Shown piece by piece: positions 46,331 to 62,770 of a stretch of 64,000 bases of DNA. Below the pieces are notes generated by a model. That model was given only the letters and a program-made list of their open reading frames with translations. It was not told the DNA's origin and did no database searches. How positions within the stretch are numbered: position 1 is the first letter of the stretch; each line of letters starts with the position of its first letter. The position numbers and the translations under genes were made by a program. Source of the stretch: an uncultured Chloroflexia bacterium (GTDB lineage: Bacteria > Chloroflexota > Limnocylindria > Limnocylindrales > CSP1-4); the NCBI GenBank assembly GCA_963813335.1, contig CAWEYL010000005.1:43201-107200 (forward strand), given 5' to 3'.

Positions 46331-47554
46331 GTGGACCCCGTCTTCGGCCTGCGACGCGACGCGGCGCCCGACCTCGACGCGGTGGGCGAGGACGAGGCGC
46401 TCGCGGCCCGGATCCGCGCGGAGATCGAGCGCGACGGCCCGATGACCTTCGCGCGGTTCATGGACCTGGCCCTGTACGACCCCGACGGCGGCTACTACCG
46501 GGCGACCGATGCGCGGCCGGGTCGGGCGGGCGACTTCCTGACCGCGCCGGAGATCCATCCGGTCTTCGGCTGGGCGCTGGCGGGCCTGCTCGACGAGGCC
46601 TGGCGGCGGCTCGGCCGGCCGCGCCCGTTCGTGCTCCGCGAGCACGGCGCGGGGACCGGGACGCTCGCACTCGCCATCCTCGAGCGGCTCGGGCGGACCG
46701 GGTCGGGGTTGCGCGACGTCATCGCCTACGACCCGATCGAGGTCGAACCGGGACGCCTCGAGACCATCGCCGACCGGCTGGCCGCGGCCGGCGCCGCCGA
46801 CCGCCTGCTCGCCCCGGACCGGCGCGACGGTCCGGTCGTGGGGGTCGTGCTCGCCAACGAGGTCCTGGACGCGCTCCCGGTCCATCGCGTCCGCCAGCGC
46901 GGGACCCGCCTCGTCGAGATCGCGGTGGGGCTCGACGAGGGCGCGTTCGTCGATGTCGAGATCGAGCCGTCGAGCCTGGCGCTCGCGGCCCGGCTCGCCG
47001 CCGAGGGCATCGAGCTCGCCGACGGCCAGGCCGCCGAGATCTGCCTCGCCCTCGACCGCTGGGTCGCCGGGACGGCCGCCGGCCTCGAGCGCGGCCTGCT
47101 CCTGCTGATCGACTACGGCGCCCCCGCGGCGGAGCTGTACGACCCGGTCCGGCGTCGCGATGGCACGCTCATGGCCTACCTGCGCCATCGCGCGTCGCAC
47201 GAGCCCTATGCCCACATCGGGCGCCAGGACCTGACCGCCCACGTCGATGTCACCGCCGTCGAGCGGGCCGCGGCCGCGGCCGGTCTCAGTCACCTGGCGA
47301 CCACGACGCAGGCCGAGCTCCTCGTCGGGCTGGGCACCGAGGGTCTGCTGCGCGAGGTCCAGGAGGACCCGGCAACGAGCCTCGAGTCCTACCTCGAGCT
47401 GCGCTCGGCCCTGATGCGCCTGCTCGACCCGTCGGCGATGGGACGGTTCCGGGTGATGGCATTCGGGCGCGACTGGCCGGACGGTCCGCCGCTCGAGGGC
47501 CTCGCCTTCCGCATGCCCCGCCGGCCGTCCGCCGAACGGATGCCGTCCGACTAG
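46331..47554 (+). CDS. Class I SAM-dependent methyltransferase, MidA/NDUFAF7 (DUF185) family
   Basis: GTG at 46331. MTFARFMDLALYDPDGGYY, DFLTAPEIHPVFG, EHGAGTGTLA, ANEVLDALPVH, LLLIDYG and GRQDLTAHVD. Confidence 0.82.
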   Translation: MDPVFGLRRDAAPDLDAVGEDEALAARIRAEIERDGPMTFARFMDLALYDPDGGYYRATDARPGRAGDFLTAPEIHPVFGWALAGLLDEAWRRLGRPRPFVLREHGAGTGTLALAILERLGRTGSGLRDVIAYDPIEVEPGRLETIADRLAAAGAADRLLAPDRRDGPVVGVVLANEVLDALPVHRVRQRGTRLVEIAVGLDEGAFVDVEIEPSSLALAARLAAEGIELADGQAAEICLALDRWVAGTAAGLERGLLLLIDYGAPAAELYDPVRRRDGTLMAYLRHRASHEPYAHIGRQDLTAHVDVTAVERAAAAAGLSHLATTTQAELLVGLGTEGLLREVQEDPATSLESYLELRSALMRLLDPSAMGRFRVMAFGRDWPDGPPLEGLAFRMPRRPSAERMPSD

Positions 47555-47911: not shown

Positions 47912-48270
47912 TTGACCGGCATCTGGTACATCGTGGGCTTCGCCTTCGCCGGCGTCTCGTTCGTGTTCCTGACGATCGGCGCCGCGTGGCTCATCTCGCA
48001 CCGCAACCAGGGCGACGAGCACAAGGGCCTGCCCTACGAATCCGGGATCGACACCTACGGTGACACCCACGGCCGGTTCGGCCTGTCGTTCTACATCTAC
48101 GCCCTGCTCTTCGTCGCCTTCGACATCGAGGTCGTCTTCATCTACCTCTGGGCGATCATCTTCCGCTCGATCGGCTCGTGGGCGGCCTCGTGAGCATGTT
48201 CATCTTCGTGGCCATCCTGCTGCTCGGGCTCGCCTACGCCTGGCGCAAGGGCGTGCTCACGTGGCGCTGA
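47912..48270 (+). CDS. nuoA: NADH-quinone oxidoreductase subunit A (as sequenced: 1-nt deletion near 48187-48190)
   Basis: TTG start. ...[43 protein letters not shown] lies in one frame. The canonical C-terminus [26 protein letters not shown] lies in the -1 frame, after GCG GCC TCG TGA. Confidence 0.85.
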
Positions 48271-48974
48271 CCCCGCCGCGCGATCCGGCGGCGCCCCGCA
48301 GCGACCTGCCCGCCACCGCGGGCTCGAGCGAGCTGATCGTGCCGCTCGTCGTCCCGAACACGCTCTGGCAGGCGGACGATCCCGAGGCATACGACGGCGG
48401 CCGCGAGAGCGACATCACCCACCTGCGCGAGTACGAGGCGAGCGGCGCTGGGTCGCCGCGACGACGCGCGCTGGAGCGGCGTCCTCGAGGTCATCCCGAC
48501 CAAGGCGGACTACGTCCTGGACCTGATCCGGCGAACAGCCTGTGGCCGCTGCTGTCCGGCCTCGCCTGCTGCGCGATCGAGATGATGTCCGCGGCCACCT
48601 CGAAGAACGACATGGACCGCTGGGGCATGTTCCCGTTCCGGGCCAGCCCGCGCCAGGCGGACGTGCTGATCGTCGCCGGCACGCTGACCACCAAGATGGC
48701 CGGCCCGCTGGTCCGCCTCTGGGAGCAGATGCCGGAGCCCAAGTGGTGCGTGGCGCTGGGCGACTGCACCTGCTCGGGCGGCCGCTACAAGCGGAGCTAC
48801 TCCACGGTCGAGGGGATCGACCGGGTGATGCCGGTCGACGTCTACATCCCGGGCTGCCCGCCCCGCCCCGAGGGCCTCATCTACGGGATGATGAAGCTCC
48901 AGCAGCTGGTCAAGGAGCGCCGCGGCCACTGGCCCGATCGCGCCATCGGCCCCACCGTGCCGGAGGGCGTCTGA
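48261..48974 (+). CDS. nuoB: NADH-quinone oxidoreductase subunit B (ORF open, but a ~50-90-nt stretch is read out of frame)
   Basis: [35 protein letters not shown] and GCPPRPE. The conserved [19 protein letters not shown] that should precede NSLWP is only found in another frame. Confidence 0.88.
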
Positions 48975-48976
48975 GC

Positions 48977-49545
48977 GTGGATCGACGGCTTCAAGGCACG
49001 CCTCGAGGCGCGCTTCGCCGACCAGCTGACGGGACCCGTCCGCCAGCGCCATGACGAGACCGAGATCCGCATCGCGGCGGGCGACGTCGTGCCGGTCCTG
49101 ACGCGCCCTCCATGACGAGCCGGCGTTCCACTTCGAGTTCCTGGCGGACCTCGCGGGCGTCGACACCGGCCAGGTCATGCAGGTCGTCTACCACCTGTGG
49201 AGCGAGACCACGCCGGACTGGCTGCGCGTCATCGCCGACGGCCTGTCCCGCGAGGACCCGCGCGTCCCGTCCGCGACGTTCCTCTGGAAGGGCGCCGAGT
49301 GGATGGAGCGCGAGGCCTACGACATGTTCGGCATCACGTTCGAGGGCAACCGCGACCTGCGCCGGATCTACATGCCGCCCGACTACACGAGCTTCCCGCT
49401 CCGCAAGGACTTCTACCTGGCCGACGACGCCGCGCGCTCGCCCGGCGGCGGGCGTCCGGCCGATGGAGCGCACCCACGCCCCGACGGCGGCGCCGGCCTC
49501 GGCGCTCGTCCGCCGGTCGCCGGCGTGACCGAGGACCGCCCGTGA
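48977..49545 (+). CDS. nuoC: NADH-quinone oxidoreductase subunit C (as sequenced: start-region frame problem and 1-nt insertion near 49106-49108)
   Basis: IDGFKARLEARFADQLTGPVRQRHDETEIRIAAGDVVPVLTR, then (frame +1) LHDEPAFHFEFLADLAGVD...VYHLWS...WKGAEWMEREAYDMFGITFEGNRDLRRIYMPPDY. The only start codon (GTG 48977) is out of frame by 1 with the following codons. Confidence 0.8.
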
Positions 49546-50763
49546 CGACGACCACCCGACGCCCGTCCCTCGACGACCCGCGCGTCCCGCTCGACCGCGA
49601 GCTGGGCGTCTTCGAGCCGATCCCGCCGTACCCGCCGCGGACCGAGCGCGAGGCCGAGTTCTACACGCTCGGCGACGGCGAGATGCTGATCAACATCGGC
49701 CCGCAGCACCCGTCGACCCACGGCGTGCTCCGCGTCGTGCTCAAGCTCGACGGCGAGAAGGTCGTCGACCTCGACCCGGTCCTCGGCTACCTCCATCGCG
49801 GCGTCGAGAAGCTGTGCGAGAACGCCGACTACCACCAGGCGATCTGCTACATCGACCCGCTCGAGTACGTCAGCTCGCTCTTCTGCGAGTGGCCCGGCGT
49901 CATGGCCTTCGAGAAGCTCCTCGACGTCCAGGTCCCGCGCCGCGCGGAGTACATCCGCGTCCTCGCTACCGAGCTCAACCGGATCGCCAGCCACGCGCTG
50001 TTCCTCGGCTGGATGGCCCTGGACCTCGGCGGCCTCACGCCGATCCTCTGGTCGTTCATCGAGCGCGACGAGATCGTCGAGATGCTGGCGTCGCTCACCG
50101 GCCAGCGGATGCTCTTCAACTACATGCGCATCGGCGGCGTCAACGGCGACCTGAACCACGAGTTCATGAGCCGCCTCGGCGACTGGATGTCGCACGCGAC
50201 CGAGCAGATCGAGGCCGGCAACGCGCTGCTCAACGAGAACGAGATCTTCGTCCGCCGGATGCGCGGCCTCGGCGTCATCGACTCGAAGACGGCCCTGCGG
50301 ATGGCGATGACCGGCCCGAACCTGCGCGCGACCGGCCTGCCGTTCGACGTCCGCCGGGCGCACCCGTACTGCGTCTACCCGGAGCTCGAGTTCGACATCC
50401 CGACGCGCGCCGAGGGCGACTGCCTGGCCCGCTACCTGCTCCGCATGGACGAGATCAAGCAGAGCCTGCGGATCATCGACCAGTGCCTCCACCAGATGCC
50501 CGACGGCCCGGTCATGGCCAAGCTCCCGCGCCTGCTCCGGCCGCGGCCCGGCCAGCGCGTACGCCGCGATCGAGGGCCCGCGCGGCCAGTACGCGGCCTA
50601 CGCCATCAGCGACGGCACCGACCAGCCGTTCCGGATGCGCATCCACGACCCCTCGTTCGTCCACCTCCAGTCGGTCGGCCTGATGATGCCCGGCCACCTC
50701 GTCGCCGACACGATGGCGGTCATGGCCTCCCTCGACCCGATCATGGGCGGCGTCGACAAGTGA
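49542..50763 (+). CDS. nuoD: NADH-quinone oxidoreductase subunit D (as sequenced: 1-nt insertion near 50556-50559)
   Basis: INIGPQHPSTHGVLRVVLKLDGE, GYLHRGVEKL. The C-terminus YAAIEGPRGQYAAYAISDGTDQPFRMRIHDPSFVHLQ...DPIMGGVDK lies in the +1 frame. Confidence 0.9.
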
Positions 50764-50797
50764 CGGTCGATCGGTCGGTCCGTGGTCGCGCCTGACC

Positions 50798-52104
50798 TTG
50801 CCGGGCAAGGTCATCTTCACCGTGGTGCCGGTGCTGCTGGCGTCGCTGATCGCGCTCGTCGCGGTCGTCGCGATCCTCGGGCCGACCATCGTCGACTTCC
50901 TCGCGAACAACCTGCCGATCGTCCGCTTCGTCGTCGCGGTGACGGTCGTCCTGCTGATGACCGTGCCGACGGCCTTCCTGATCATCTACATGGAGATGAA
51001 GGTCATCGCGCTGATGAACCTGCGGATCGGCCCGGACCGGGTGGGCCCGTTCGGGTCGCTCGCTGTCGGTGGTCCACGGGCTCAAGGTCCTCATGAAGGA
51101 GGACTTCACGCCGACCGGCGCCGACCCGATCGTCTTCACGTGGGCGCCGGTCGTCGTCTACCTCGCCAGCGTCATGAGCCTGCTGGTCATCCCGTTCGCT
51201 CCCGGGCTCTTCGGGCAGGACCTCAACCTCGGGCTGCTCTACTTCTTCGCGATCGGCGGCCTGTCGGTCGTCGGCCTGCTGATGGCCGGCTGGTCGAGCT
51301 TCAACAAGTACTCGCTGCTGGGCGGGCTGCGCTCCGCGGCCCAGGTCGTCAGCTACGAGATCCCGCTCACCCTGTCGGTCGTCGGGATCATCCTGCTGGC
51401 CGGCACGATGAGCCTCAACCAGATCGTCCTGGACCAGGGCGGCTGGTTCATCGACTGGTACATCTTCCGCCAGCCGCTCGGCTTCCTGATCTTCTTCATC
51501 GCCGCGACCGCGGAGGCGAACCGGACCCCGTTCGACCTGACCGAGGCGGACTCCGAGATCGTCGCCGGCTTCGCCACCGAGTACTCGGGCATGCGCTTCG
51601 GGTTCTTCTTCTTCGCCGAGTACGTGAACGTGTTCATCATCTCGGCCCTGACCGTGACCCTGTTCTTCGGCGGCTGGAACGCGCCGTTCCCCTGGCCGTG
51701 GCCGGTCACCGTCAACCTCGACCCGGGCGAGCCTCGGGATCGTGCTGCTGCTCCTCGTCGCGATCGTCCCGCTGGTCGTGACGCTGGTCTTCGCGGCCCC
51801 GTTCTGGCTCGCGTCGTCGCGGATCAAGGGCTGGCAGGCGCTCATCGTCGGCTTCGTGCTCGCGAACATCTTCATCGTCGCCGTCATCGGCGCCTGGGCG
51901 TACATCGGGCTCGACTGGGTCGCCGGCCTCGTCTGGTTCCTGGGCAAGACCTACGTCTTCGTGTTCACGTTCGTGTGGATGCGCGGCACGCTGCCCCGCG
52001 TGCGCATCGACCAGCTCATGGACTTCGCCTGGAAGTGGCTGCTGCCCGCCGCGCTGCTCAACCTGTTCGTGACCGCGACGGCGATCGTGGTGGTGGGCAA
52101 GTGA
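50798..52104 (+). CDS. nuoH: NADH-quinone oxidoreductase subunit H (as sequenced: 1-nt insertions near 51062 and 51726-51730)
   Basis: Three frame segments. The first ends ...[15 protein letters not shown]. The second is [17 protein letters not shown]...[37 protein letters not shown]. The third is SLGIVLLLL...[26 protein letters not shown]. Confidence 0.9.
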
Positions 52105-52779
52105 TCAACGAGCTGATCCCGGGCCTCGGCATCGTCAAGGGCATGGCGCTGACCCTGCGCCGCTTCTTCGAGCCGAAGGTCACGGTCATGTACCCGGAGG
52201 TGCCGGTCGACGTCTCGCCCAAGTTCCGCGGCCGGCTCCAGCTCCTGTACGACGAGTACGGCACGCTCAAGTGCGAGACGTGCTTCCAGTGCGCCCAGGC
52301 CTGCCCGATCGAGTGCATCGACATGGGCGGCATGGACACCCGCGGCCGGTTCCACGTCCACTGGGGCGCGCCGGAGACCTACGGCGAGCGTCGCGAGGAA
52401 TCCGCGCTGCGGCGCTCCGGCCGCCCGGTCCCCGACCCGGCCTACCGGCCGTTCGCAGGCGGTCGACCTCGCGACGGTCGACGCGATCCTCGAGACCTAC
52501 GACCACGACCCGGCGCACCTGCTCGCGATCCTCGAGGAGACACAGGCCGCCTACGGATACCTGCCGGTCGCCGCGCTCAAGCGGATCAGCCAGCTCACCG
52601 GCACCTGGTACGCGATGATCTACGGCACCGCGTCGTACTACTCGCACCTGCGCTTCGAGCCCGCCGAGGCGGCCGACCAGGCGGCCGCGATGGCCGCCCA
52701 CCGACCGGCCGAGACCGCCTACCTCGCGGCCCTCGGGACGGCCCTCGGTGGCGGCACGGCCCAGCGGGCGGACGCGTGA
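52101..52779 (+). CDS. Fusion of the NuoI N-terminal half (one 4Fe-4S motif) with a NuoE-like N-terminal helical domain lacking the 2Fe-2S domain (1-nt indel near 52455-52460)
   Basis: GTG overlaps the nuoH stop. [49 protein letters not shown]...[13 protein letters not shown] is NuoI-like. From 52459, frame +1 reads [62 protein letters not shown], which is NuoE-like. No stop occurs in any forward frame between 52271 and 52618. Confidence 0.7.
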
Positions 52780-52781
52780 CC

Positions 52782-54107
52782 ATGGCGACCCTGCTGAAGA
52801 CCCCCAACGGCTGGCCGAAGATCCTGCCCGCGCGGTCGACGCTGACCGACCCGCTCGACCTCGACGCCGCCGTGACCGTCGGCGCGTTCGCCGGCCTGCA
52901 CGCGGCGGTCCGCGACCTCGGGCCGACCGCGACCATCGCCGCGATCGCCGCCTCGGGGCTGCGCGGGCGAGGCGGCGCCGGCTTCCCGGCGGGTGACAAG
53001 TGGCGGACCGCGGCGACGACCGAGGCGCCGCGGCGCTACGTCGTGGCCAACGGCTACGGCGCGGACCCGGCGTCGGGCACGGACCGCTACCTGATGGAGC
53101 ACGACCCGTACGGCGTCATCGAGGGGGTCGCCATCGCGGCCTTCGCCATCGGCGCGGAGGAGGCCTTCATCGCGGTCCGTGCCGAGGACAGCGAGGCCGT
53201 CCGCCGCCTCGAGGCCGCGATCGGCGCCGCCACCGACGCCGGGTTCATCGGCGAGGACGCCTTCGGCCCGCGTCGCGACCTGTCCGTCGTCGTCCGACCC
53301 GTCCAGGGCGCGTACATGCTCGGCGAGGAGACCGTGCTGCTGAAGGCCCTCGAGGGCAAGCGCGGCCAGCCCGAGCAGCGGCCGCCGCATCCCGCGGAGC
53401 GCGGCCTGTGGGGCATGCCGACGGTCGTCCAGAACGTGCAGACCCTCGGCGCGCTCGGCTGGATCCTTCGTAACGGTCCGGCCGCCTACGTCGCCACCGG
53501 GTCCAAGGCCAGCCCGGGCACCGTCCTCGTCCAGGTGCGCACCCCGTCCGGCGACGGGATCGCCGAGGTGCCGCTCGGGACGCCGCTGCGCAAGGTCGTC
53601 GCGCTCGGCGGCGCGCTCCCCGACGGCCGGTCGATCAAGGCCGTGCTCGTCGGCGGCCCGTCCGGCGGCCTGCTGCCGCCCGAGGCGCTCGACACGCCCT
53701 ACGACTTCGGGCCGCTCCGCGCGGCCGGCGCGCACATCGGCTCGGGCTCGGTGGTCGTCGCCGACGACCGGGCCTGCATCGTGGACCTCGCCCGCCTGCT
53801 GACCCGGTTCTGCGCCGGCGAGGCGTGCGGCAAGACCATCCCGTGCCGGATCGGCACGCGCCGCCTGGTCGAGATCGCCGACCGGGTCGTGGACGGCCGT
53901 CCGCGCCCCACCGACATGGACCTCCTGACCGACCTCTCGGCCGATATCGCGGCCTCCGCGCTGTGCGACCACGAGCGCCTGACGACCCTCCCGCTCACGA
54001 GCGGGATGCGATACTTCCGCTCCGAACTGGACGAGCACATCCTCAACGCTGCATGCCCGGCCGGCGTCTGTCACCCGATCGCGGTGGCCGCCGGAGCGGC
54101 CCGATAA
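52782..54107 (+). CDS. Divergent NuoF-like (51-kDa family) subunit
   Basis: GLRGRGGAGFPAGDKW, GAYMLGEETVLLKALEGKRGQPEQRPPHPAERGLWGMPTVVQNVQT and EACGKTIPCRIGT. Several canonical FMN/NADH/N3 positions are substituted. Confidence 0.85.
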   Translation: MATLLKTPNGWPKILPARSTLTDPLDLDAAVTVGAFAGLHAAVRDLGPTATIAAIAASGLRGRGGAGFPAGDKWRTAATTEAPRRYVVANGYGADPASGTDRYLMEHDPYGVIEGVAIAAFAIGAEEAFIAVRAEDSEAVRRLEAAIGAATDAGFIGEDAFGPRRDLSVVVRPVQGAYMLGEETVLLKALEGKRGQPEQRPPHPAERGLWGMPTVVQNVQTLGALGWILRNGPAAYVATGSKASPGTVLVQVRTPSGDGIAEVPLGTPLRKVVALGGALPDGRSIKAVLVGGPSGGLLPPEALDTPYDFGPLRAAGAHIGSGSVVVADDRACIVDLARLLTRFCAGEACGKTIPCRIGTRRLVEIADRVVDGRPRPTDMDLLTDLSADIAASALCDHERLTTLPLTSGMRYFRSELDEHILNAACPAGVCHPIAVAAGAAR

Positions 54108-54115
54108 GGCGACCC

Positions 54116-56753
54116 ATGGCCGACCTCCTCACCCGCCCCGACAGCCGCCCGGAGACGGACCCCGTTCCCGAGCCCGAGTCGCTCGCCGACCGGCTCCTGG
54201 CGACCCGCTCGCCGCAGCGGCCGCAGTCGTCGGCGCGCATCCGCATCGAGGTCGACGGCCGGGTCGTCGAGGGCTTCGAGGGCCAGACGATCCTCGAGGT
54301 CTGCCGCGACAACGGCATCGAGATCCCGACGCTCTGCTACGAGCCGAAGCTGCCCGGCTTCGGGGCGTGCCGGATGTGCGTGGTCGAGGTGGAGGGCGAG
54401 GAGCACCCGCCGATCTCCTGCTCGCGGACGTGCGAGCCCGACATGAAGGTCCAGACCCAGACCGAGGAGGTCCGCCGCCTGCGCCGGACGAACCTCGAGC
54501 TGATCTTCAGCGACCACAACGCCTACTGCCTGCCGCCCTGCCAGAACAAGTGCCCGAGCCACATCGACATCCCGGGCTTCCTCAAGGCCAACGCCGAGGC
54601 CAACTGGCGCGAGAGCACGCGGATCTTCAAGCGGACGATCCCGTTCCCCTCGGTCCTCGGGCGGGTCTGCCCGGCCCCGTGCGAGGAGCACTGCCGGCGC
54701 GACGAGGTCGACGAGGCGATCGCCATCCGCGACAGCCACCGCTACGCCGGCGACCAGGTCCTCAAGGCGATGCTCGACGAGGACGTCGATCCGCCGCTGC
54801 CGTTCGAGGTCCAGGCACCGTCCGGTCGGCGGGCCGCGGTCATCGGCTCCGGCCCGGCCGGGATGGCGGCCGCGTTCTACCTCCTGCTGGCCGGCCACGA
54901 GGTCACCATCTACGAGCGCGACCCGGCGCCGGGCGGGATGCTCCGCTACGGGATCCCGCAGTACCGCCTGCCCAAGGTCGAGGTCCTCGAGGCCGAGTAC
55001 GAGTCGGTCACCCGGCTCGGCGGCAAGATGGTCTGCAACATGGGCCTCGGGCGCGACTTCACGCTCGACGACCTGACCAACCAGGGCTTCGACGCGGTCG
55101 TGGTCGCCATCGGCTGCTACGACACCAACAAGCTGGGCATCCCCGGCGAGGACGCCGCCGAGGTCCTCGACGGCCTCGAGTACCTGCGCACCGCGACGCT
55201 CGGCCTGCCGTACCCCGAGCACGCCGGCAAGCGCGTCGTCGTCATCGGCGGCGGGTTCACCTCGATGGACTGCTCGCGGACGTCGGTCCGCCAGGGCGCC
55301 AGCGAGGTCACGCTCGTCTACCGCCGCGACATGAAGGACATGCCGGCGTCCAACGAGGTCCACGAGGCCATCGAGGAAGGCGTCACCGCCATCTTCCAGG
55401 CCGGCCCGACGCGGGTCGTCCTCGACGACAAGGGCAACGTCACCGGCGTCGAGTTCATCCGCATGGCGCTCGGCGAGCCCGACGCGTCCGGCCGCCGCCG
55501 CCCGGAGCCGGCGCCCGGCACCGAGTTCATCGTCCCGTGCGACCGCGTGCTGCTCGCCATCGGCCAGGGCCCGGACCTCACCTGGATCGGCCCGGGCTCC
55601 GAGGGCCCGGAGGCCACCAAGCAGCGCCGCCTCAAGGCCGACGCGGTCACGTTCGAGACCGGCCGGCCCGGGCGTCTTCGGCACCGGCGACGTGCGCATC
55701 GGCGCCGCGACCGTGGTCCAGGCCATCGCCGAGGGCCGCCGCTCCGCGTACGCCGTCGACGCGTTCCTCAAGGGCCTCGACCTCTCGTCGATCCGGGCCC
55801 GCCAGACGCTCGCCGAGCCGCAGCCCGAGTTCCTCTCGATCGTCCCGTTCACCGGCGAGATCAAGGAGCCGCGCTACCGGATGGCGGCCATGGAGGCCGA
55901 GGAGCGCAACCACAACTACATCGAGTACGAGCTGCCCTACACCCGCGAGGCCGCGGTCGCCGAGTCCACCCGCTGCCTGCAGTGCACCTGCGAGGCGATC
56001 GGCTTCTGCGACCTGCGCCGCCTCGGCATCGAGTACGGCACCACGCTCAAGACGCTCGAGCCGCAGTACCACCAGGGCGCCGGCTACCGGAGCGTGACCG
56101 AGAACCGCTTCACCGGGGTCAACCACGACTACGTCCGTGACGACTCGCACGCGTTCATCCTCCGCGAGCCGTCGCGCTGCATCGACTGCGGGCGCTGCGC
56201 CCAGGTCTGCTCGGAGGTGGTCGGCGCGGCCTGCTACGACTTCATGCGGATCGGCTTCGACACGCTGGTGACGACGCCGCTCGACATGAGCCTCAACGAC
56301 ACCCCGTGCGTGTCCTGCGGCCGCTGCGCCGAGACGTGCCCGACGGGCGCCCTCATGCCGAAGCCACGGATCCTGCAGAAGTACGACGTCGACGAGAGCC
56401 GCTGCATCCTGTGCGGCATCTGCGTCGACGCGTGCCCCTACGACGCGCTCCGCGACGGCGGCGACATCGAGCTCGCCCATACGAGCCGGTCCGAGCCGAT
56501 GATCGACCTGATGGCGATCGCCGCCATCGACCGCGAGACCGAGATCACCTACATCCGGCGCGAGCGCGGCTGGGCGGATGCCGCCGCCGCCGAGGGCCGC
56601 GTGCTCGACCCCGCCCGGATGCTCCCGATGCTGCCCGCCACGATCGCGGGGCTCCCGTCCGGCAACGGCAACGGGCATGGGCACGGCGACGGGCACGACC
56701 ACTCGAATGGCCACGGCGCCGGGACGGCGCTGCTCGGCAGCGGGCACGAGTAG
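54116..56753 (+). CDS. ~878-aa fusion: NuoG-type 2Fe-2S domain + GltD-like FAD/NAD(P)H oxidoreductase + NuoG/HydA-type 4Fe-4S domain + NuoI C-terminal half + His-rich tail (1-nt insertion near 55668-55673)
   Basis: [30 protein letters not shown] is 2Fe-2[20 protein letters not shown]...[12 protein letters not shown] plus [14 protein letters not shown] and [13 protein letters not shown] are GltD-like. After the frameshift come [36 protein letters not shown] and [16 protein letters not shown]. Then comes [28 protein letters not shown], which is the NuoI second motif. Confidence 0.75.
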
Positions 56754-56759
56754 GCGGCC

Positions 56760-57356
56760 GTGCTCAGGAAGCTCGTCCCGATCGTCCTCGCCCTGATGGT
56801 CCTCGGCGCCGTCGCGACCATCGCCGCGGTGATGGTGGTCGTCCTCGGCCAGGACTGGGACGACGCGCTCCTGTGGATCCTCGCCTCGATCATGATCGGC
56901 GCCGGGCTCCTCGTCGTGACGATGCGCGACATCATCCGCTGCGGCCTGGCGATGATCGTCTGCTTCGGCGCCCTCGCCGGGATCTACGTCCTGATGGGGG
57001 CGCCGCTGATCGGCGCGGCCCAGGTCATCGTCTACATCGGCGCGATCAGCGTCCTGATCCTGTTCGCGATCATGCTGACCCAGACCAAGGACGCGCCGTC
57101 CCGCCTCGTCTTCCAGACGCAGGCCGGTCCCGCGGCCATCGCCGCGATCGTGATCGCGCTCGTGATCGCCCTCTCGGTCGCGGCCACCGACTGGCCCGGC
57201 GTCGTGGCCGAGCGGATCCGCTACGCGACCGACGCGATGGCCAGGTTCATGTTCGACAGCTTCGTCCTGCCGTTCGAGGTCATCAGCGTGGTCCTGCTGG
57301 CCGCGGTCATCGGCGGCGTCTACCTCGCCAAGCGCGAGCCGGGCGGCCCGTCGTGA
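56760..57356 (+). CDS. nuoJ: NADH-quinone oxidoreductase subunit J
   Basis: 198-aa membrane protein. [27 protein letters not shown] and [16 protein letters not shown]. Confidence 0.9.
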
Positions 57357-57664
57357 GCGACTCGCTCGACGCGTATCTCGTCCTGTCGGGGATCCTGTTC
57401 GCGATCGGCTCGTTCGGGTTCCTGGCCCGCCGCAACGCCATCAGCATGCTGATGTCGATCGAGCTGATGCTCAACGCGGTCAACCTCTCGATCGTCGCAT
57501 TCGGGGCCTTCAACCCCGTGCTCGGGGTGCAGGGCCAGATCATCGCGCTGTTCGTGATGGCCATCGCCGCCGGTGAGGCCACCGTGGGCCTGGCCATCGT
57601 CATCGCCATCTACCGCAACAAGAAGACGCCGCTCGTCGACGAGTACGACGACATGCGCCGATGA
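57353..57664 (+). CDS. nuoK: NADH-quinone oxidoreductase subunit K
   Basis: GTG overlaps the nuoJ stop. [38 protein letters not shown]...[17 protein letters not shown]. Confidence 0.92.
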
Positions 57665-59624
57665 GCCCCGAGTCGCTCATCCCCCTGCTCGTCATCCTGC
57701 CGCTCAGCGGCTTCGCCATCACGGCGCTGATCGGCCGGCGGCTCGGCAAGCAGGCCCACTGGATCCCTGTCCTGGCCGTCTTCGCGGCGTGGCTCATCGC
57801 GATGAGCGTGTCGTACGCGGCGCTGACCGGCGCGGCGCCGTTCGGCGAGCACGGCTACGGCGCGACCCTCTTCGACTGGATCCCGGCCGGCGCGTTCCAC
57901 GTCGAGGCCGGGTTCTTCGTCGACCAGCTGACCGCCTGCCTGCTGATCGTGGTCACGACCATCGGCCTGCTGGTCCACGTCTACTCGATCGGCTACATGA
58001 GCCACGACCCGGGCTACTGGCGGTTCTTCGCCTACCTGAACCTGTTCATGTTCAGCATGCTCACGCTGGTCCTCGCGGACTCGTGGCTGGTGGTGTTCGT
58101 GGCGTGGGAGCTGGTCGGCCTGTCCAGCTACCTGCTCATCGGCTTCTGGTTCCGCAAGCGCTCCGCGGCCCTCGCCGCCAAGAAGGCGTTCATCGTCAAC
58201 CGCGTCGGCGACATCGGGTTCGCGCTCGGGATCATGGCCATCTTCGTGAACACCGGGACGCTGAACATCCGCGAATCGCTCGACGTGCTCACCAGCGCGA
58301 CCCTCGTCGCCTTCCCGATCCCGATCGCGATCGTCGCGCTGCTGGTGTTCGCCGGGGCGATGGGCAAGTCCGCCCAGTTCCCGCTCCACGTCTGGCTGCC
58401 GGACGCGATGGAGGGCCCCACCCCGGTCTCCGCCCTCATCCACGCGGCGACGATGGTCAACGCCGGCGTCTACCTGGTCGCCCGGGCGAACCCGCTGTTC
58501 GCGGCCTCGCCGTCCTCGCTGGTCGTGGTCGCGGCGATCGGCATCTTCACGGCCATCCTCGCCGCCTCCATCGCGATGACCCAGACCGACATCAAGCGGG
58601 TCCTCGCCTATTCGACGCTGTCGCAGCTGGGCTACATGTTCGCGGCGCTCGGGGTCGGCGCGTTCACCGCGGCGATCTTCCACCTCATGACCCATGGCTT
58701 CTTCAAGGGCCTGCTCTTCCTCGGCTCGGGCTCGGTCATCCACGCCGTCCACGAAGAGCAGGACATGCGCAGGATGGGCGGCCTCTCGAAGAAGATCCCG
58801 ATCACCTACGCGACGATGCTCATCGGCTCGCTCGCGATCGCCGGGATCCCGCCGCTGGCCGGCTTCTTCTCCAAGGACGAGATCCTCGGCGAATCCTTCA
58901 AGCAGGGCTTCCTGTGGGTGTGGGCGATCGGCTTCGTGGTCGCCGGCCTGACCGCGTTCTACATGTTCCGGCTCATGGGCCTCACCTTCTGGGGCGCGTT
59001 CCGCGGCCCGAAGGCCGTCTGGGACCGGATCCACGAGTCGGCGCCGGTCATGACCATCCCGCTGATCCTGCTGGCCATCGCGTCGGTCTTCCTCGGCATG
59101 CTCCTCGGGCTGCCGTTCGGGGCCAGCACGATCTCGGGCTGGCTCGCCCCGGTCTTCGAGGAGTCGGTCCAGGCCCTCGGCCACGAGGAGGCCGCCTTCG
59201 CCCTGTTCGGCATCGACGGCGTGCTCATCCTCGCGAGCGTGACCGTGGCGGTGGTCGGCATCGCGATCGCCTGGCGGCTGTTCGGCGTCGAGCTCCTCGG
59301 GCTGAAGCTGACCGCGCGCCCCGAGCGCGTCCGCGAGCTGAGCGCCAGGGTCCCGTTCCTCTACCGCGCCTCGCTCAACAAGTGGTGGTTCGACGAGCTC
59401 AACCACCTGCTGTTCATCGTCATCGGCGGCAAGGTCGCGAACGCCCTGTGGTGGTTCGACCGCGAGGTCGTCGACGGCACCGTGAACCTGGTCGGGCGCT
59501 CGACCGTCGCCTCGGGCCGCGGGCTCCGCCGCGTCCAGACCGGCCACGTCCAGAACTACGCGCTAGGCATCGCGGTCGGGCTCATCGTCATGGCCGGCTC
59601 GTACCTCCTGCTGGTGGGACGCTG

Positions 59625-59625
<1 letters not shown>
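57661..59625 (+). CDS. nuoL: NADH-quinone oxidoreductase subunit L
   Basis: 654 aa, Mrp-antiporter-like. [48 protein letters not shown]. Confidence 0.95.
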
Positions 59626-61279
<1,654 letters not shown>

Positions 61280-61283
<4 letters not shown>

Positions 61284-62770
61284 GCCACGACCTCTTCGTC
61301 CTCAGCCCCCTGATCGCGGCAGTCCTCACGGCGGCCGCGGTCCTCATCGTCGACCTGATCCGGCCCGGCAAGGCCATGGTCGCCGTGGCCACCGCGCTGA
61401 TCGGCCTGGCGATCACGACCGCGGTCACCCTGGCGGTCGGCCTGACCTCGAGCGGCGGCTTCGCCCAGATGACCGCGTTCGGCGGCGTCTACACGGTCGA
61501 CGCGCTGACGACCTTCCTCGACATCCTGTTCATCGCGATCATCGCGCTGACGATCTCGTTCGCACCGGACTACCTGCTCGCGCGCGGGCTGCCGGTCGCG
61601 GAATTCATCATCGTGCTGCTGTTCGCGATGACCGGCGCGATGCTGCTGTCGGCCTCGACCGACCTGCTGCTGCTCTTCCTCGGCCTCGAGCTGATGGTGC
61701 TCCCCGGCTACCTGCTGGCGGCCTACCACAAGACCGACTCGTACTCGACCGAGGGCGCGATCAAGTACTTCCTGCTCGGCTCGTTCAGCTCGGCGATCTT
61801 CCTGTTCGGCCTTGCCTTCATCTGGGGCATGACGGGCACGACCAGCGTCGACGGCGTCTACGCGGCCCTGAGCGCGATCGTCGCCGGGACGGCGCCGCTG
61901 GCGCCCGGCCTCGCGATGGGGTTGGCGTTCCTGACCACCGGTGTCGCCTTCAAGATCGCGGCGGTCCCGTTCCACTACTGGACGCCGGACGCGTACCAGG
62001 GCTCGCCCACGCCCATCACCGGCTACCTGTCGGTCGGGCCGAAGGTCGGCGCGTTCGCCCTGATCCTGCGCCTCTTCGGCGAGGCGATCTGGCCGCTCCA
62101 CGACTGGTGGCTGCCGGTCGTCATCGTGCTGGCGACGCTGACCATGACCCTCGGCAACCTCGTCGCGCTGACCCAGGACAACGTCAAGCGGATGCTGGCC
62201 TACAGCTCGATCGCGCACACCGGCTACATGCTGGTCGGCCTCGCGGCCTACGCCTCGGGCCAGATCCAGGGCCTCGAGGGGCTCCTCTACTACAGCGCCG
62301 CCTACGCGGCCATGAACCTGGGCGCGTTCGCGGTCATCGCCGCGCTCCAGAAGCGGCCGGGGGTCACCTCGCAGCTCGACACGTTCGCGGGGCTCGGGCG
62401 CAAGGAGCCGATCCTGGCGATCCTGCTGACCCTCTTCCTGCTGTCACTGACCGGCATCCCGCCGACCGCCGGGTTCTTCGCCAAGGCGTACGTGATCCTG
62501 GCCGCCGTGCAGGCCGGCGGGCCGATGACCGTGCTCGCCGTCATCGCGGTGCTCAATGCCGCGGCCGCCGCGTTCTACTACCTGCGCGTCGTCGTCTACA
62601 TGTTCATGCGCGATCCGGCCAGCGACCTCCCGGCGCTCCGCCACGGCCGGCTGGTCTGGAGCGGACTGGCGGTCGCGACGACCTTCACCATCATCCTCGG
62701 GCTGTTCCCGGAGCCGCTGCTGCAGGTGGTCGGCGAGGCCGCCGCCGCCATCTCGAAGATCGGGCTCTAG
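61280..62770 (+). CDS. nuoN: NADH-quinone oxidoreductase subunit N
   Basis: TTG overlaps the nuoM stop. LFLGLELMVLPGYLLAAY, FKIAAVPFHYWTPDAYQGSPTPITGYLS. Confidence 0.93.

Follow-up and report, generated by a model that had tools for sequence, protein, structure and literature searches.

To our knowledge, NuoI is a single chain holding both clusters N6a and N6b in every solved structure of respiratory complex I, an enzyme whose NADH module is treated as a separable unit docked by non-covalent contacts. Exchange of the input device on a conserved Q/P core is familiar from FpoF in Fpo and from the ferredoxin-binding subunits of NDH-1. The operon described here, from an uncultured Chloroflexia bacterium of the Limnocylindria (order Limnocylindrales, CSP1-4), carries its nuoI gene in two separate pieces. 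It lies in a stretch of 64,000 nucleotides of contig CAWEYL010000005.1 (assembly GCA_963813335.1, positions 43,201 to 107,200), which was analysed whole and is called the window below. Three genes, designated g1, g2 and g3, stand between nuoH and nuoJ in a three-frame translation of 52.0-56.9 kb. The first begins with the N-terminal half of NuoI, the second resembles NuoF, and the third runs through NuoG-like and GltD-like domains into the C-terminal half of NuoI.

Set against the canonical 14-subunit complex I (Thermus thermophilus Nqo1-15, Escherichia coli Nuo), the operon retains all membrane and Q-module subunits in the usual order, a NuoF-like flavoprotein and NuoG-type 2Fe-2S and 4Fe-4S motifs, and its NuoI is recognisable as a whole once the halves are joined. 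It departs from that enzyme in distributing NuoI over two polypeptides and in placing the E-, F- and G-like genes inside nuoI rather than after nuoD; moreover, the NuoE-like part has no N1a site, the NuoG-like part has no formate-dehydrogenase-like (Fdh-like) domain and contains a GltD-type domain for flavin adenine dinucleotide (FAD) and NAD(P)H, and all three parts are closer to subunits of the Bfu family. The transhydrogenases NfnABC and StnABC (9bov, 8oh5, 9n5u; PMC11829005, PMC10482914, PMC12018979) share the domain order of g3 to about residue 700, together with its conserved FAD/NADPH-type motifs. They are, however, soluble tetramers, whereas the module in the window sits in a nuo operon, lacks BfuB clusters B2-B5 and the BfuC cluster, carries the NuoI C-half in place of the Fdh-like domain, and has its BfuC-like helical domain fused to the NuoI N-half. 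Replacement of NuoEFG by a Bfu-type module in the middle of a nuo cluster has been predicted as Nuo-Bfu in Geobacter, Deferribacteres, Planctomycetes and Nitrospirae (Schut et al. 2022, PMC9304861), but those complexes have 14 subunits (A-N) with a complete BfuBC core, are predicted to confurcate NADH and ferredoxin, and are described with no mention of a split NuoI or of GltD. Mbx-like operons of Thermotoga and proteobacteria (Degli Esposti 2015, PMC4758237) do place a GltD-type NAD(P)H flavoprotein at the NuoI position of a complex I-like module; there NuoI is reported to be substituted, whereas here it is kept but split, and those operons are of the Mrp/Mbx type rather than 11-subunit nuo operons and contain neither NuoF-like nor NuoE-like parts. 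Likewise, the FpoF and NDH-1 input modules (PMC3144371) are exchanged on a conserved Q/P core, but as separate subunits docked on an intact NuoI, FpoI or NdhI, none of them stitched into it. In the full-text literature, with most subscription journals outside its coverage, we found neither a split nuoI nor a nuo operon carrying GltD described, and the original prediction (a note made from the sequence of the window alone) likewise named no described complex I of this architecture. A natural, strongly conserved complex I with a split NuoI, whose halves are each joined to a separate part of a two-flavin module of foreign origin, would be new; we know of no earlier case in which two chains rebuild a core complex I subunit.

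The complex I genes A, B, C, D, H, J, K, L, M and N form one cluster, as judged by tblastn and Pfam in the window and in its intact relatives, and the order on the plus strand at about 47.9-62.8 kb is nuoA-B-C-D-H-g1-g2-g3-J-K-L-M-N. The operon encodes complex I, and its host, a member of the Limnocylindria (Chloroflexota), has a genome of about 70% G+C. No nuoE, nuoF or nuoG follows nuoD, and no other sequence resembling nuoE, nuoF, nuoG or nuoI occurs within the 64 kb window. The gene order with a split nuoI, as originally proposed, is thus borne out by tblastn and translation; the two half-ferredoxin motifs named at 52272-52307 and 56364-56450 are exact by translation, and Pfam and TIGR profile scans agree with the domain composition claimed for g1 (PF01257), g2 (PF01512, PF10589) and g3 (PF13510, PF14691, PF07992), all at E-values that chance does not explain. 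That g1 and g3 are each one polypeptide holds after removal of a single base from each, and fails for the sequence as read, which has one surplus base in each gene, at 52455 (g1) and 55670 (g3). No intact two-motif nuoI, the outcome that had been named as fatal to a split, appeared after this correction.

The argument for one NuoI made of two chains turns on how the halves fit a single-chain model. No single gene has both CxxCxxCxxxCP motifs or reaches the 113.05 bits at which TIGR01971 recognises a NuoI polypeptide. Coverage of this 121-position model by the two halves is complementary and without overlap: residues 10-83 of g1 match NuoI models in their N-terminal half only (NF004536, E = 8e-16; TIGR01971 about 1-65, 52.5 bits), and residues 751-796 of g3 match TIGR01971 positions 71-116 (44.5 bits). 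When residues 1-85 of g1 and 746-816 of g3 were joined in silico, the product matched TIGR01971 in one stretch over positions 1-116 with 103 bits, and its residues 9-146 aligned, again as one stretch, to Arabidopsis TYKY (7ar7_I residues 23-158, E = 7e-23), as well as to residues 8-131 of E. coli NuoI and 7-123 of T. thermophilus Nqo9. All eight Cys fell on canonical ligand positions, with a gap of four residues at the junction. The last 135 residues of g3 alone returned NuoI models first (TIGR01971, E = 1e-11), nine of the ten top families being NuoI or NdhI, and the generic ferredoxin family followed at 25.5 bits, so that the C-terminal motif scores better as NuoI than as an unspecialised ferredoxin. 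Among PDB matches of this tail, only NuoI/TYKY chains ran past the Cys motif through DxELA (query 7-57 or 7-64); polyferredoxins owe their higher total scores to many repeats, each matching the 25-residue motif. Each cluster of a 2x[4Fe-4S] ferredoxin has three of its Cys ligands in one motif and its fourth in the other; by this rule, a two-chain NuoI would have N6a and N6b each ligated across a subunit boundary. On these alignments we regard the architecture and the two-chain NuoI as very probable.

The start codon of g1 (GTG) overlaps the stop of nuoH (GTGA), and the gene reads in one frame to about 52454 and then in the +1 frame from 52456 to its stop at 52780. Because full-length database proteins (P0001 and P0002, 96-97% identical to corrected g1 from end to end) span the fusion junction, that junction is genuine and not an artefact of correction; the best 120 relatives are all intact, at 217-234 aa covering 89-100% of g1. 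All four Cys of its motif are invariant (79/79 homologues), as is a fifth, Cys70 in CPIEC, which is not conserved in distant variants. Past the NuoI half, residues 127-188 match PF01257 at positions 2-63 of 145 only (E = 1e-9), without the thioredoxin-like domain whose four Cys bind the N1a 2Fe-2S cluster in NuoE (TIGR01958, PF01257). No Cys occurs beyond residue 70, and g1 therefore lacks both an N1a-type 2Fe-2S site and the BfuC cluster; the full thioredoxin-like 2Fe-2S domain is kept in the distant variants P0250 and P0231. Residues 19-90 of 9bov_C are the best PDB match of this helical domain (51.6 bits, vs about 20 on complex I NuoE), and in an AlphaFold2 (AF2) model of the g1 homologue P0067, built on a 34-sequence alignment, the NuoE-like domain reached a predicted local distance difference test score (pLDDT) of 88-98.

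The larger fusion, g3, changes frame at about 55670-55673, between FETGRPG and VFGTGDV within a typical GltD motif. Residues 38-771 align to residues 4-700 of 9bov_A (E = 2e-160) and 3-701 of 8oh5_C (E = 1e-138). The protein also matches NF009454 (PRK12814, putative NADPH-dependent glutamate synthase small subunit) over positions 4-631 of 657 (E = 3e-160), at 534.8 bits against a cut-off of 916; the NuoG model TIGR01973 matches N-terminal parts only, at 95.7 bits against a cut-off of 470. Its GltD module consists of the two-cluster Fer4_20 domain followed by FAD and NAD(P)H Rossmann domains, whose motifs (GSGPAG; GGGFTSMD...VYRR) are invariant in 20 homologues and align with NfnA. A 265-aa protein of a distant variant, L083, aligns to g3 in two blocks (window 54236-54529 and 55989-56495) with the GltD block between them, which implies that the latter was inserted in a His-ligated cluster motif, H-x3-C...[GltD]...C-x5-C. 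In StnC, residues 1-101 form a 2Fe-2S N-domain and 102-565 an inserted GltD FAD/NADPH domain, NuoG-type clusters come next, and residues 683-1172 make up an inactive Fdh-like domain, within which a cluster branch is described as a non-functional remnant (PMC10482914); the Fdh-like C-terminal domain of StnC/NfnA mediates tetramer formation. The chain of g3 has the 2Fe-2S N-domain, the inserted GltD domain and the NuoG-type 4Fe-4S domain of StnC/NfnA in the same order as far as that branch, then continues instead as the NuoI C-half and a His/Gly-rich tail. This tail (window 56649-56753) contains a low-complexity His-rich stretch that is kept across the family, and metal binding is possible. One database entry, P0293 (1075 aa), is g3 fused to NuoJ (PF00499), most likely through a stop codon lost in an error-prone assembly. 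Public annotation names g1 'ferredoxin' or 'hypothetical protein' and g3 'FAD-dependent oxidoreductase'; the JGI name for g3, 'NADPH-dependent glutamate synthase beta subunit-like oxidoreductase/formate hydrogenlyase subunit...', reflects a NuoI-type COG without interpreting it.

Between these fusions, g2 passes the Pfam cut-offs for the 51-kDa flavin mononucleotide (FMN) domain (PF01512, 133.9 bits) and the NuoF 4Fe-4S region (PF10589, 73 bits), and falls short of the NuoF equivalog TIGR01959 (337.6 bits vs a cut-off of 558.65). Its best PDB matches are BfuB-type chains, at 329-341 bits vs 220-262 for complex I NuoF. It aligns only to the BfuB core (about residues 104-526 of 9bov_B), with one cluster site, and has neither the N-terminal 2Fe-2S domain nor the C-terminal 2x[4Fe-4S] domain. 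The N3 ligand Cys are present in 68-71 of 71 homologues (residues 344-395 of g2 in the intact relative L002; window 53811-53960), and across 69 species the most conserved stretches are GLRGRGGAG, DKW, GEET, NVQT, an altered loop, PPHP (PPFP in NuoF) and the four N3 Cys. We read g2 as a retained but modified flavin/nucleotide site. At the position of the canonical middle N3 Cys it has GKT, a new upstream Cys is found in 68/71 homologues, and the distant clades L084, L086 and L087 retain the canonical CxxCxxC.

The best solved relatives of the C-terminal part of g1, of g2 and of g3 are chains of the same entries: 9bov/9bp5, which we take to be the NfnABC of Caldicellulosiruptor saccharolyticus described in PMC11829005; 8oh5/8oh9, StnABC of Sporomusa ovata; and 9n5u, an archaeal Nfn-Bfu. 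Descent of the inserted module from a Bfu-family transhydrogenase of the NfnABC/StnABC type would best explain these matches, and the resemblance to the Sporomusa-type enzyme named in the original prediction stands for all three parts (9bov/9bp5 and 8oh5). The ferredoxin coupling suggested with it does not fare as well. What defines a Bfu enzyme is a BfuBC core holding FMN and six clusters; the non-bifurcating homologues are without B2-B5 (PMC9304861, PMC11829005). Here g2 amounts to a BfuB core with one cluster site and g1 has no BfuC cluster; since the N-terminal 2Fe-2S and C-terminal 2x[4Fe-4S] clusters of BfuB are absent along with that of BfuC, bifurcation with ferredoxin is unlikely.

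Table 1. Features of the split-nuoI operon in the window (positions count from the first nucleotide of the window)
Feature	Position	Strand	Description or basis
nuoA, nuoB, nuoC, nuoD, nuoH block	47912..52104	+	tblastn with intact L002 proteins; indel map vs L001; Pfam families of L001/L002 orthologues
nuoA	~47912-48264	+	tblastn, Pfam of orthologues
nuoB	~48261-48974	+	tblastn, Pfam of orthologues
nuoC	~48990-49545	+	tblastn, Pfam of orthologues; more than one frame
nuoD	~49548-50763	+	tblastn, Pfam of orthologues; more than one frame
nuoH	~50792-52104	+	tblastn, Pfam of orthologues; more than one frame
g1	52101..52780	+	225 aa after removal of extra base 52455; NuoI N-half fused to NuoE-type helical domain
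NuoI N-terminal half (g1)	52128..52349	+	amphipathic N-terminal helix and first CxxCxxCxxxCP motif (52272-52307)
NuoE/BfuC-type N-terminal helical domain (g1)	52480..52665	+	without thioredoxin-like 2Fe-2S domain; PF01257; PDB 9bov_C
g2	52782..54107	+	single frame, 441 aa; FMN/NAD(H)-type site, N3-type 4Fe-4S with altered ligand spacing
g3	54116..56753	+	878 aa after removal of extra base 55670; StnC/NfnA-like fusion with NuoI C-half
NuoG/HydA-type 2Fe-2S domain (Fer2_4) (g3)	54233..54463	+	PF13510 residues 40-116, E = 2e-20; four Cys invariant 59/59
GltD/NfnB-type module (g3)	54527..55736	+	Fer4_20 PF14691 residues 138-217; PF07992 Pyr_redox_2 residues 240-540
NuoG/HydA-type ferredoxin-like domain, two Cys motifs (g3)	56157..56354	+	PF22117 Fer4_Nqo3 residues 681-746; eight Cys invariant 59/59
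NuoI C-terminal half (g3)	56364..56564	+	strand, second ferredoxin motif 56403-56438, NuoI-type DxELA tail; four Cys invariant 59/59
nuoJ, nuoK, nuoL, nuoM, nuoN block	56760..62770	+	tblastn; Pfam families of L001/L002 orthologues
nuoJ	~56760-57356	+	
nuoK	~57353-57664	+	
nuoL	~57661-59625	+	
nuoM	~59622-61283	+	
nuoN	~61280-62770	+	

A genome scan by pattern and tblastn, with one genome per GTDB species, returned at least 589 stretches encoding a relative, a number that should not be read as the size of the family and in which ordinary NuoI N-halves may be counted. Among the best 80 of these loci almost all are labelled Chloroflexota, Chloroflexia, Ca. Limnocylindria or Limnocylindrales; two odd labels, Patescibacteria and Polarisedimenticolia, at 78-80% identity, are probably binning errors. 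The order A-B-C-D-H-g1-g2-g3-J-K-L-M is found in every listed locus long enough to hold it, except one (L070), and about 45 loci among the matches listed have the full order, mostly in single reading frames. The relatives found come from soil, groundwater and other metagenomes, with no cultured representative among them. The order recurs in dozens of independent metagenome-assembled genomes (MAGs) from different projects and assemblers, so that related genomes do share the synteny and the fear that 52.4-56.4 kb is a chimeric mis-join is disposed of. Across this family g3 is 82-91% identical, comparable to NuoD (79-95%). In the exceptional Limnocylindrales MAG (L070:10011-16642) the operon breaks after g2 and is followed by open reading frames on the opposite strand, by eye a thyX-like gene and 2-oxoglutarate dehydrogenase E1, reflecting either a rearrangement or a chimeric contig.

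Distant variants, with g1 identity down to 27-30%, keep the logic H-[NuoI-N/NuoE]-F...[NuoG-N/NuoI-C]-J. L088 and L089 encode D-H-[NuoI-N + full-length NuoE]-F-[G/GltD/I-C], with J next in L088 and the contig ending inside the last gene in L089. In L083 (L083:359-11571, Logan SRR22388304, 49% G+C), H is followed by a NuoI N-half fused to a NuoE with intact 2Fe-2S motif, by two further module proteins and then by J-K-L-M-N; one of the two, of 1048 aa, combines 2Fe-2S, NuoF and GltD parts, and the other is the 265-aa protein mentioned above, a NuoG N-part with canonical H-x3-C-x2-C-x5-C joined to the NuoI C-half. The NAD(P)H Rossmann motif of the 1048-aa protein looks degenerate (VIGPVALAAD, no YRR). 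L084 (L084:6481-14281, GCA_016190715.1, labelled Chloroflexi bacterium) has nuoA-B-C-D-H with the split-NuoI module and no adjacent nuoJ-N; its NuoE-like part is truncated, as in the window, and downstream of the module lie genes of flavin reductase, GYD protein, ferredoxin and pyruvate:ferredoxin oxidoreductase type. A second clade of Limnocylindria (L086:8197-14532 and L087:8230-14361) carries a five-gene cluster made up of a NuoB of 193-196 aa with a CC motif of the complex I type, a short, 358-aa NuoD that begins at GPQHPSTHG, and the module, the latter comprising a 239-aa NuoI-N/NuoE-like protein, a NuoF-like protein with canonical CxxCxxC N3 motif, and a g3-like protein of 802-804 aa ending in the NuoI C-half. 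NuoA, NuoC, NuoH and NuoJ-N are absent from this cluster, which apparently encodes a soluble peripheral arm. Assignment of its NuoB and NuoD to a hydrogenase was considered and rejected in view of the CC motif, the GPQHPSTHG start and the lack of NiFe cysteine motifs. What is constant across the variants is the split itself (NuoI-N with a NuoE-like part, NuoG-N-like with NuoI-C), the position of GltD and the NuoE cluster being variable.

The window itself shows ten single-base insertions relative to L001, which is 91% identical and was aligned over the whole operon. Eight of them (48989, 49103, 49453, 50556, 50769, 50782, 51061 and 51731) fall at the nuoB-nuoC boundary and in nuoC, nuoD and nuoH, and the other two (52455 and 55670) in g1 and g3, so that these five genes are broken. 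The genes of L001 are mostly intact. Since homologous loci mostly read in a single frame, we take the insertions as assembly errors, most likely systematic ones; were they real, they would mark a very recent pseudogene cluster in one genome and leave conclusions at the level of the family unaffected. A single survey (isolate names MFD...) supplied many of the related contigs, as long-read MAGs. The inserted bases are all G or C, none within a long homopolymer. Programmed frameshifting in g1 or g3 was also considered, and is ruled out by intact homologues that read through in one frame. A slightly higher G+C content of the module than of the flanking membrane-subunit genes, which might have hinted at horizontal transfer, is expected for soluble versus hydrophobic proteins and was set aside.

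The reading that we find reasonably likely from the sequence relationships is that a two-chain NuoI clasps a two-flavin, non-bifurcating NAD(P)H input module to the Q-module. The halves carried by g1 and g3 would rebuild one 2x[4Fe-4S] NuoI fold on the Q-module, with Cys of both chains contributing to N6a and to N6b. In NuoE/BfuC the helical domain holds the flavoprotein (PMC11829005), and the NuoE-like domain of g1 would accordingly be placed to tie g2 to NuoI, with g3 tied covalently through its own NuoI C-half. These two ties would stand in for the contact that NuoG usually makes through its large C-terminal domain, which g3 lacks. In Nfn/Stn, electrons pass from FAD through the two GltD clusters and the NuoG-type clusters to B1 and FMN (PMC10482914, PMC11829005), and the NfnA/StnC-type chain binds and oxidises NADPH (same sources). 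By analogy, electrons might enter at the FMN site of g2 (NADH-type), at the FAD site of g3 (NADPH-type, with its YRR motif), or at both, with the NuoG-type clusters as common acceptor of the two flavins. The electrons would leave by what in StnC is a dead-end branch, pass through N6a/N6b to N2 and quinone, and drive proton pumping. The module would not bifurcate, because the required clusters are gone. Dual input of NADH and NADPH, as judged from the motifs, we hold to be about evenly balanced, and the most likely function is that of a proton-pumping quinone reductase fed by both NADH and NADPH, or at any rate by NAD(P)H.

Several observations weigh against such a double-input clasp. In g2 the canonical NuoF loop NADE.EPG.F.DR is replaced by NGYGADPASGTDR, the loop reading NGYGADPAS; NN has become QN; the middle N3 Cys is lost, with ligands C344-x4-C349-x5-C355...C395 vs the canonical CxxCxxC...C; and g2 is the least conserved protein of the operon, at 65-86% identity. 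The FMN/NADH site may thus be altered or lost. NADPH specificity is taken from a motif only, and two electrically connected nucleotide sites would permit uncoupled transhydrogenation, which needs explaining. The changes in g2, together with PPHP for PPFP, the NuoE-like partner devoid of a cluster and a g3 that is among the most conserved proteins of the operon, would suit an enzyme that uses NADPH only, entering at the GltD-type FAD site, with the NuoF-like subunit structural or vestigial and giving a cluster or scaffolding only. We consider this rather unlikely, in that conservation within g2 peaks at the glycine-rich loop, DKW, GEET, NVQT and the four N3 Cys, which argues for a ligand site under selection, and an aerobic heterotroph would need another NADH dehydrogenase. 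Conversely, NADH might be the respiratory donor and the GltD domain might reduce NADP+, as a built-in transhydrogenase or by reverse flow from quinol driven by the proton-motive force, or serve another acceptor. In Nfn/Stn the two sites are indeed wired through the same clusters in a reversible reaction (PMC10482914, PMC11829005), and the five-gene NuoB/NuoD/module cluster without membrane subunits indicates that the module can serve a soluble redox function; on the other hand, sequence gives no direction, and the uphill reduction of NADP+ by NADH in Nfn/Stn requires the ferredoxin branch missing here, making this alternative unlikely.

The pairing of the halves, argued from sequence logic, has its own difficulties. 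The joined NuoI stays below the TIGR01971 cut-off (103 vs 113 bits); AF2 gave the NuoI N-half of P0067 a pLDDT below 50 on its shallow 34-sequence alignment, which is weak evidence compatible with a half-domain in need of its partner; and a model of the g3 homologue P0271 (20 close homologues) had a mean pLDDT of 31.8, so that modelling lends the pairing no support. Were the halves unpaired, each would bind a cluster in another way, g1 perhaps through Cys70 and g3 perhaps by packing its last motif against its own ferredoxin domain, and the clusters of the complex would form a different chain; the invariance of that fifth Cys and the want of a confident N-half fold fit this idea. We judge it improbable nonetheless: the halves cover the NuoI profile without overlap and, once joined, match NuoI from end to end; distant variants do not conserve Cys70; the other g3 motifs already form a complete pair; and each variant splits NuoI between the same partners, even L083, in which a 265-aa NuoG-N protein carries the C-half. 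A true bifurcating or confurcating 'Nuo-Bfu' complex I that also uses ferredoxin could be imagined from the closest solved relatives of the module, the bifurcating NfnABC/StnABC, and from the prediction of such complexes by Schut et al. (PMC9304861). It is highly improbable, given that the defining BfuBC core is missing, with g2 (441 aa) covering only about residues 104-526 of BfuB without either end domain and g1 having no BfuC cluster, and given that HydABC no longer bifurcates once B3/B4 are deleted (PMC11829005). A faulty assembly, or a gene cluster decaying into pseudogenes on this contig only, would account for the ten insertions that break nuoC, nuoD, nuoH, g1 and g3, and is scarcely credible: the same order stands with intact frames in the independent MAGs, and the window proteins, once single bases are removed, are 80-97% identical to intact homologues with no further decay. 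At the level of the family an artefact is already refuted.

If the clasped, two-flavin module is taken as the basis, a fuller picture can be drawn, which we offer tentatively as one that may well prove wrong in part: in the complex I of Limnocylindria, N6a and N6b would be ligated by two polypeptides; NADPH and NADH would feed a proton-pumping quinone reductase through an ex-bifurcating NfnABC module; run in reverse, the enzyme would make NADPH from quinol and the proton-motive force; and the clasped module would also exist detached from the membrane arm, with NuoB and NuoD only. The system opens to test the recruitment of input modules onto the 11-subunit core, the exchange of parts between the Nfn/Stn and complex I lineages, and the use of NADPH by a proton-pumping complex I. 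Limnocylindria (formerly Ellin6529) are abundant in soils and waters, and an enzyme with split NuoI is probably a quantitatively important respiratory entry point there, to judge from its distribution.

Some features of the neighbourhood and of the remaining subunits may be added. Directly 5' of nuoA lies a gene of the PF02636 Methyltransf_28 family (window 46331-47554, plus strand; E = 4e-47), as it does upstream of nuoA in L001 and L002, and a PF02636 gene is also found directly 3' of the membrane-less NuoB-NuoD-module cluster (L086:14637-15704, L087:14358-15458). This is the MidA/NDUFAF7 family, whose mitochondrial member methylates the NuoD homologue NDUFS2; its placement suggests a conserved link between the methyltransferase and the peripheral arm of the split-NuoI type. 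NuoB has an N-terminal extension of about 100 residues ahead of its Pfam domain (window 48261-48974; L002:6118-6831). NuoH, at 446-452 aa, has about 95 residues inserted relative to the Pfam model (window 50792-52104; L002:8641-9999), which look like extra hydrophobic helices ahead of the last conserved segment; the NuoH proteins of L083 and L084 are of ordinary length (321-355 aa).

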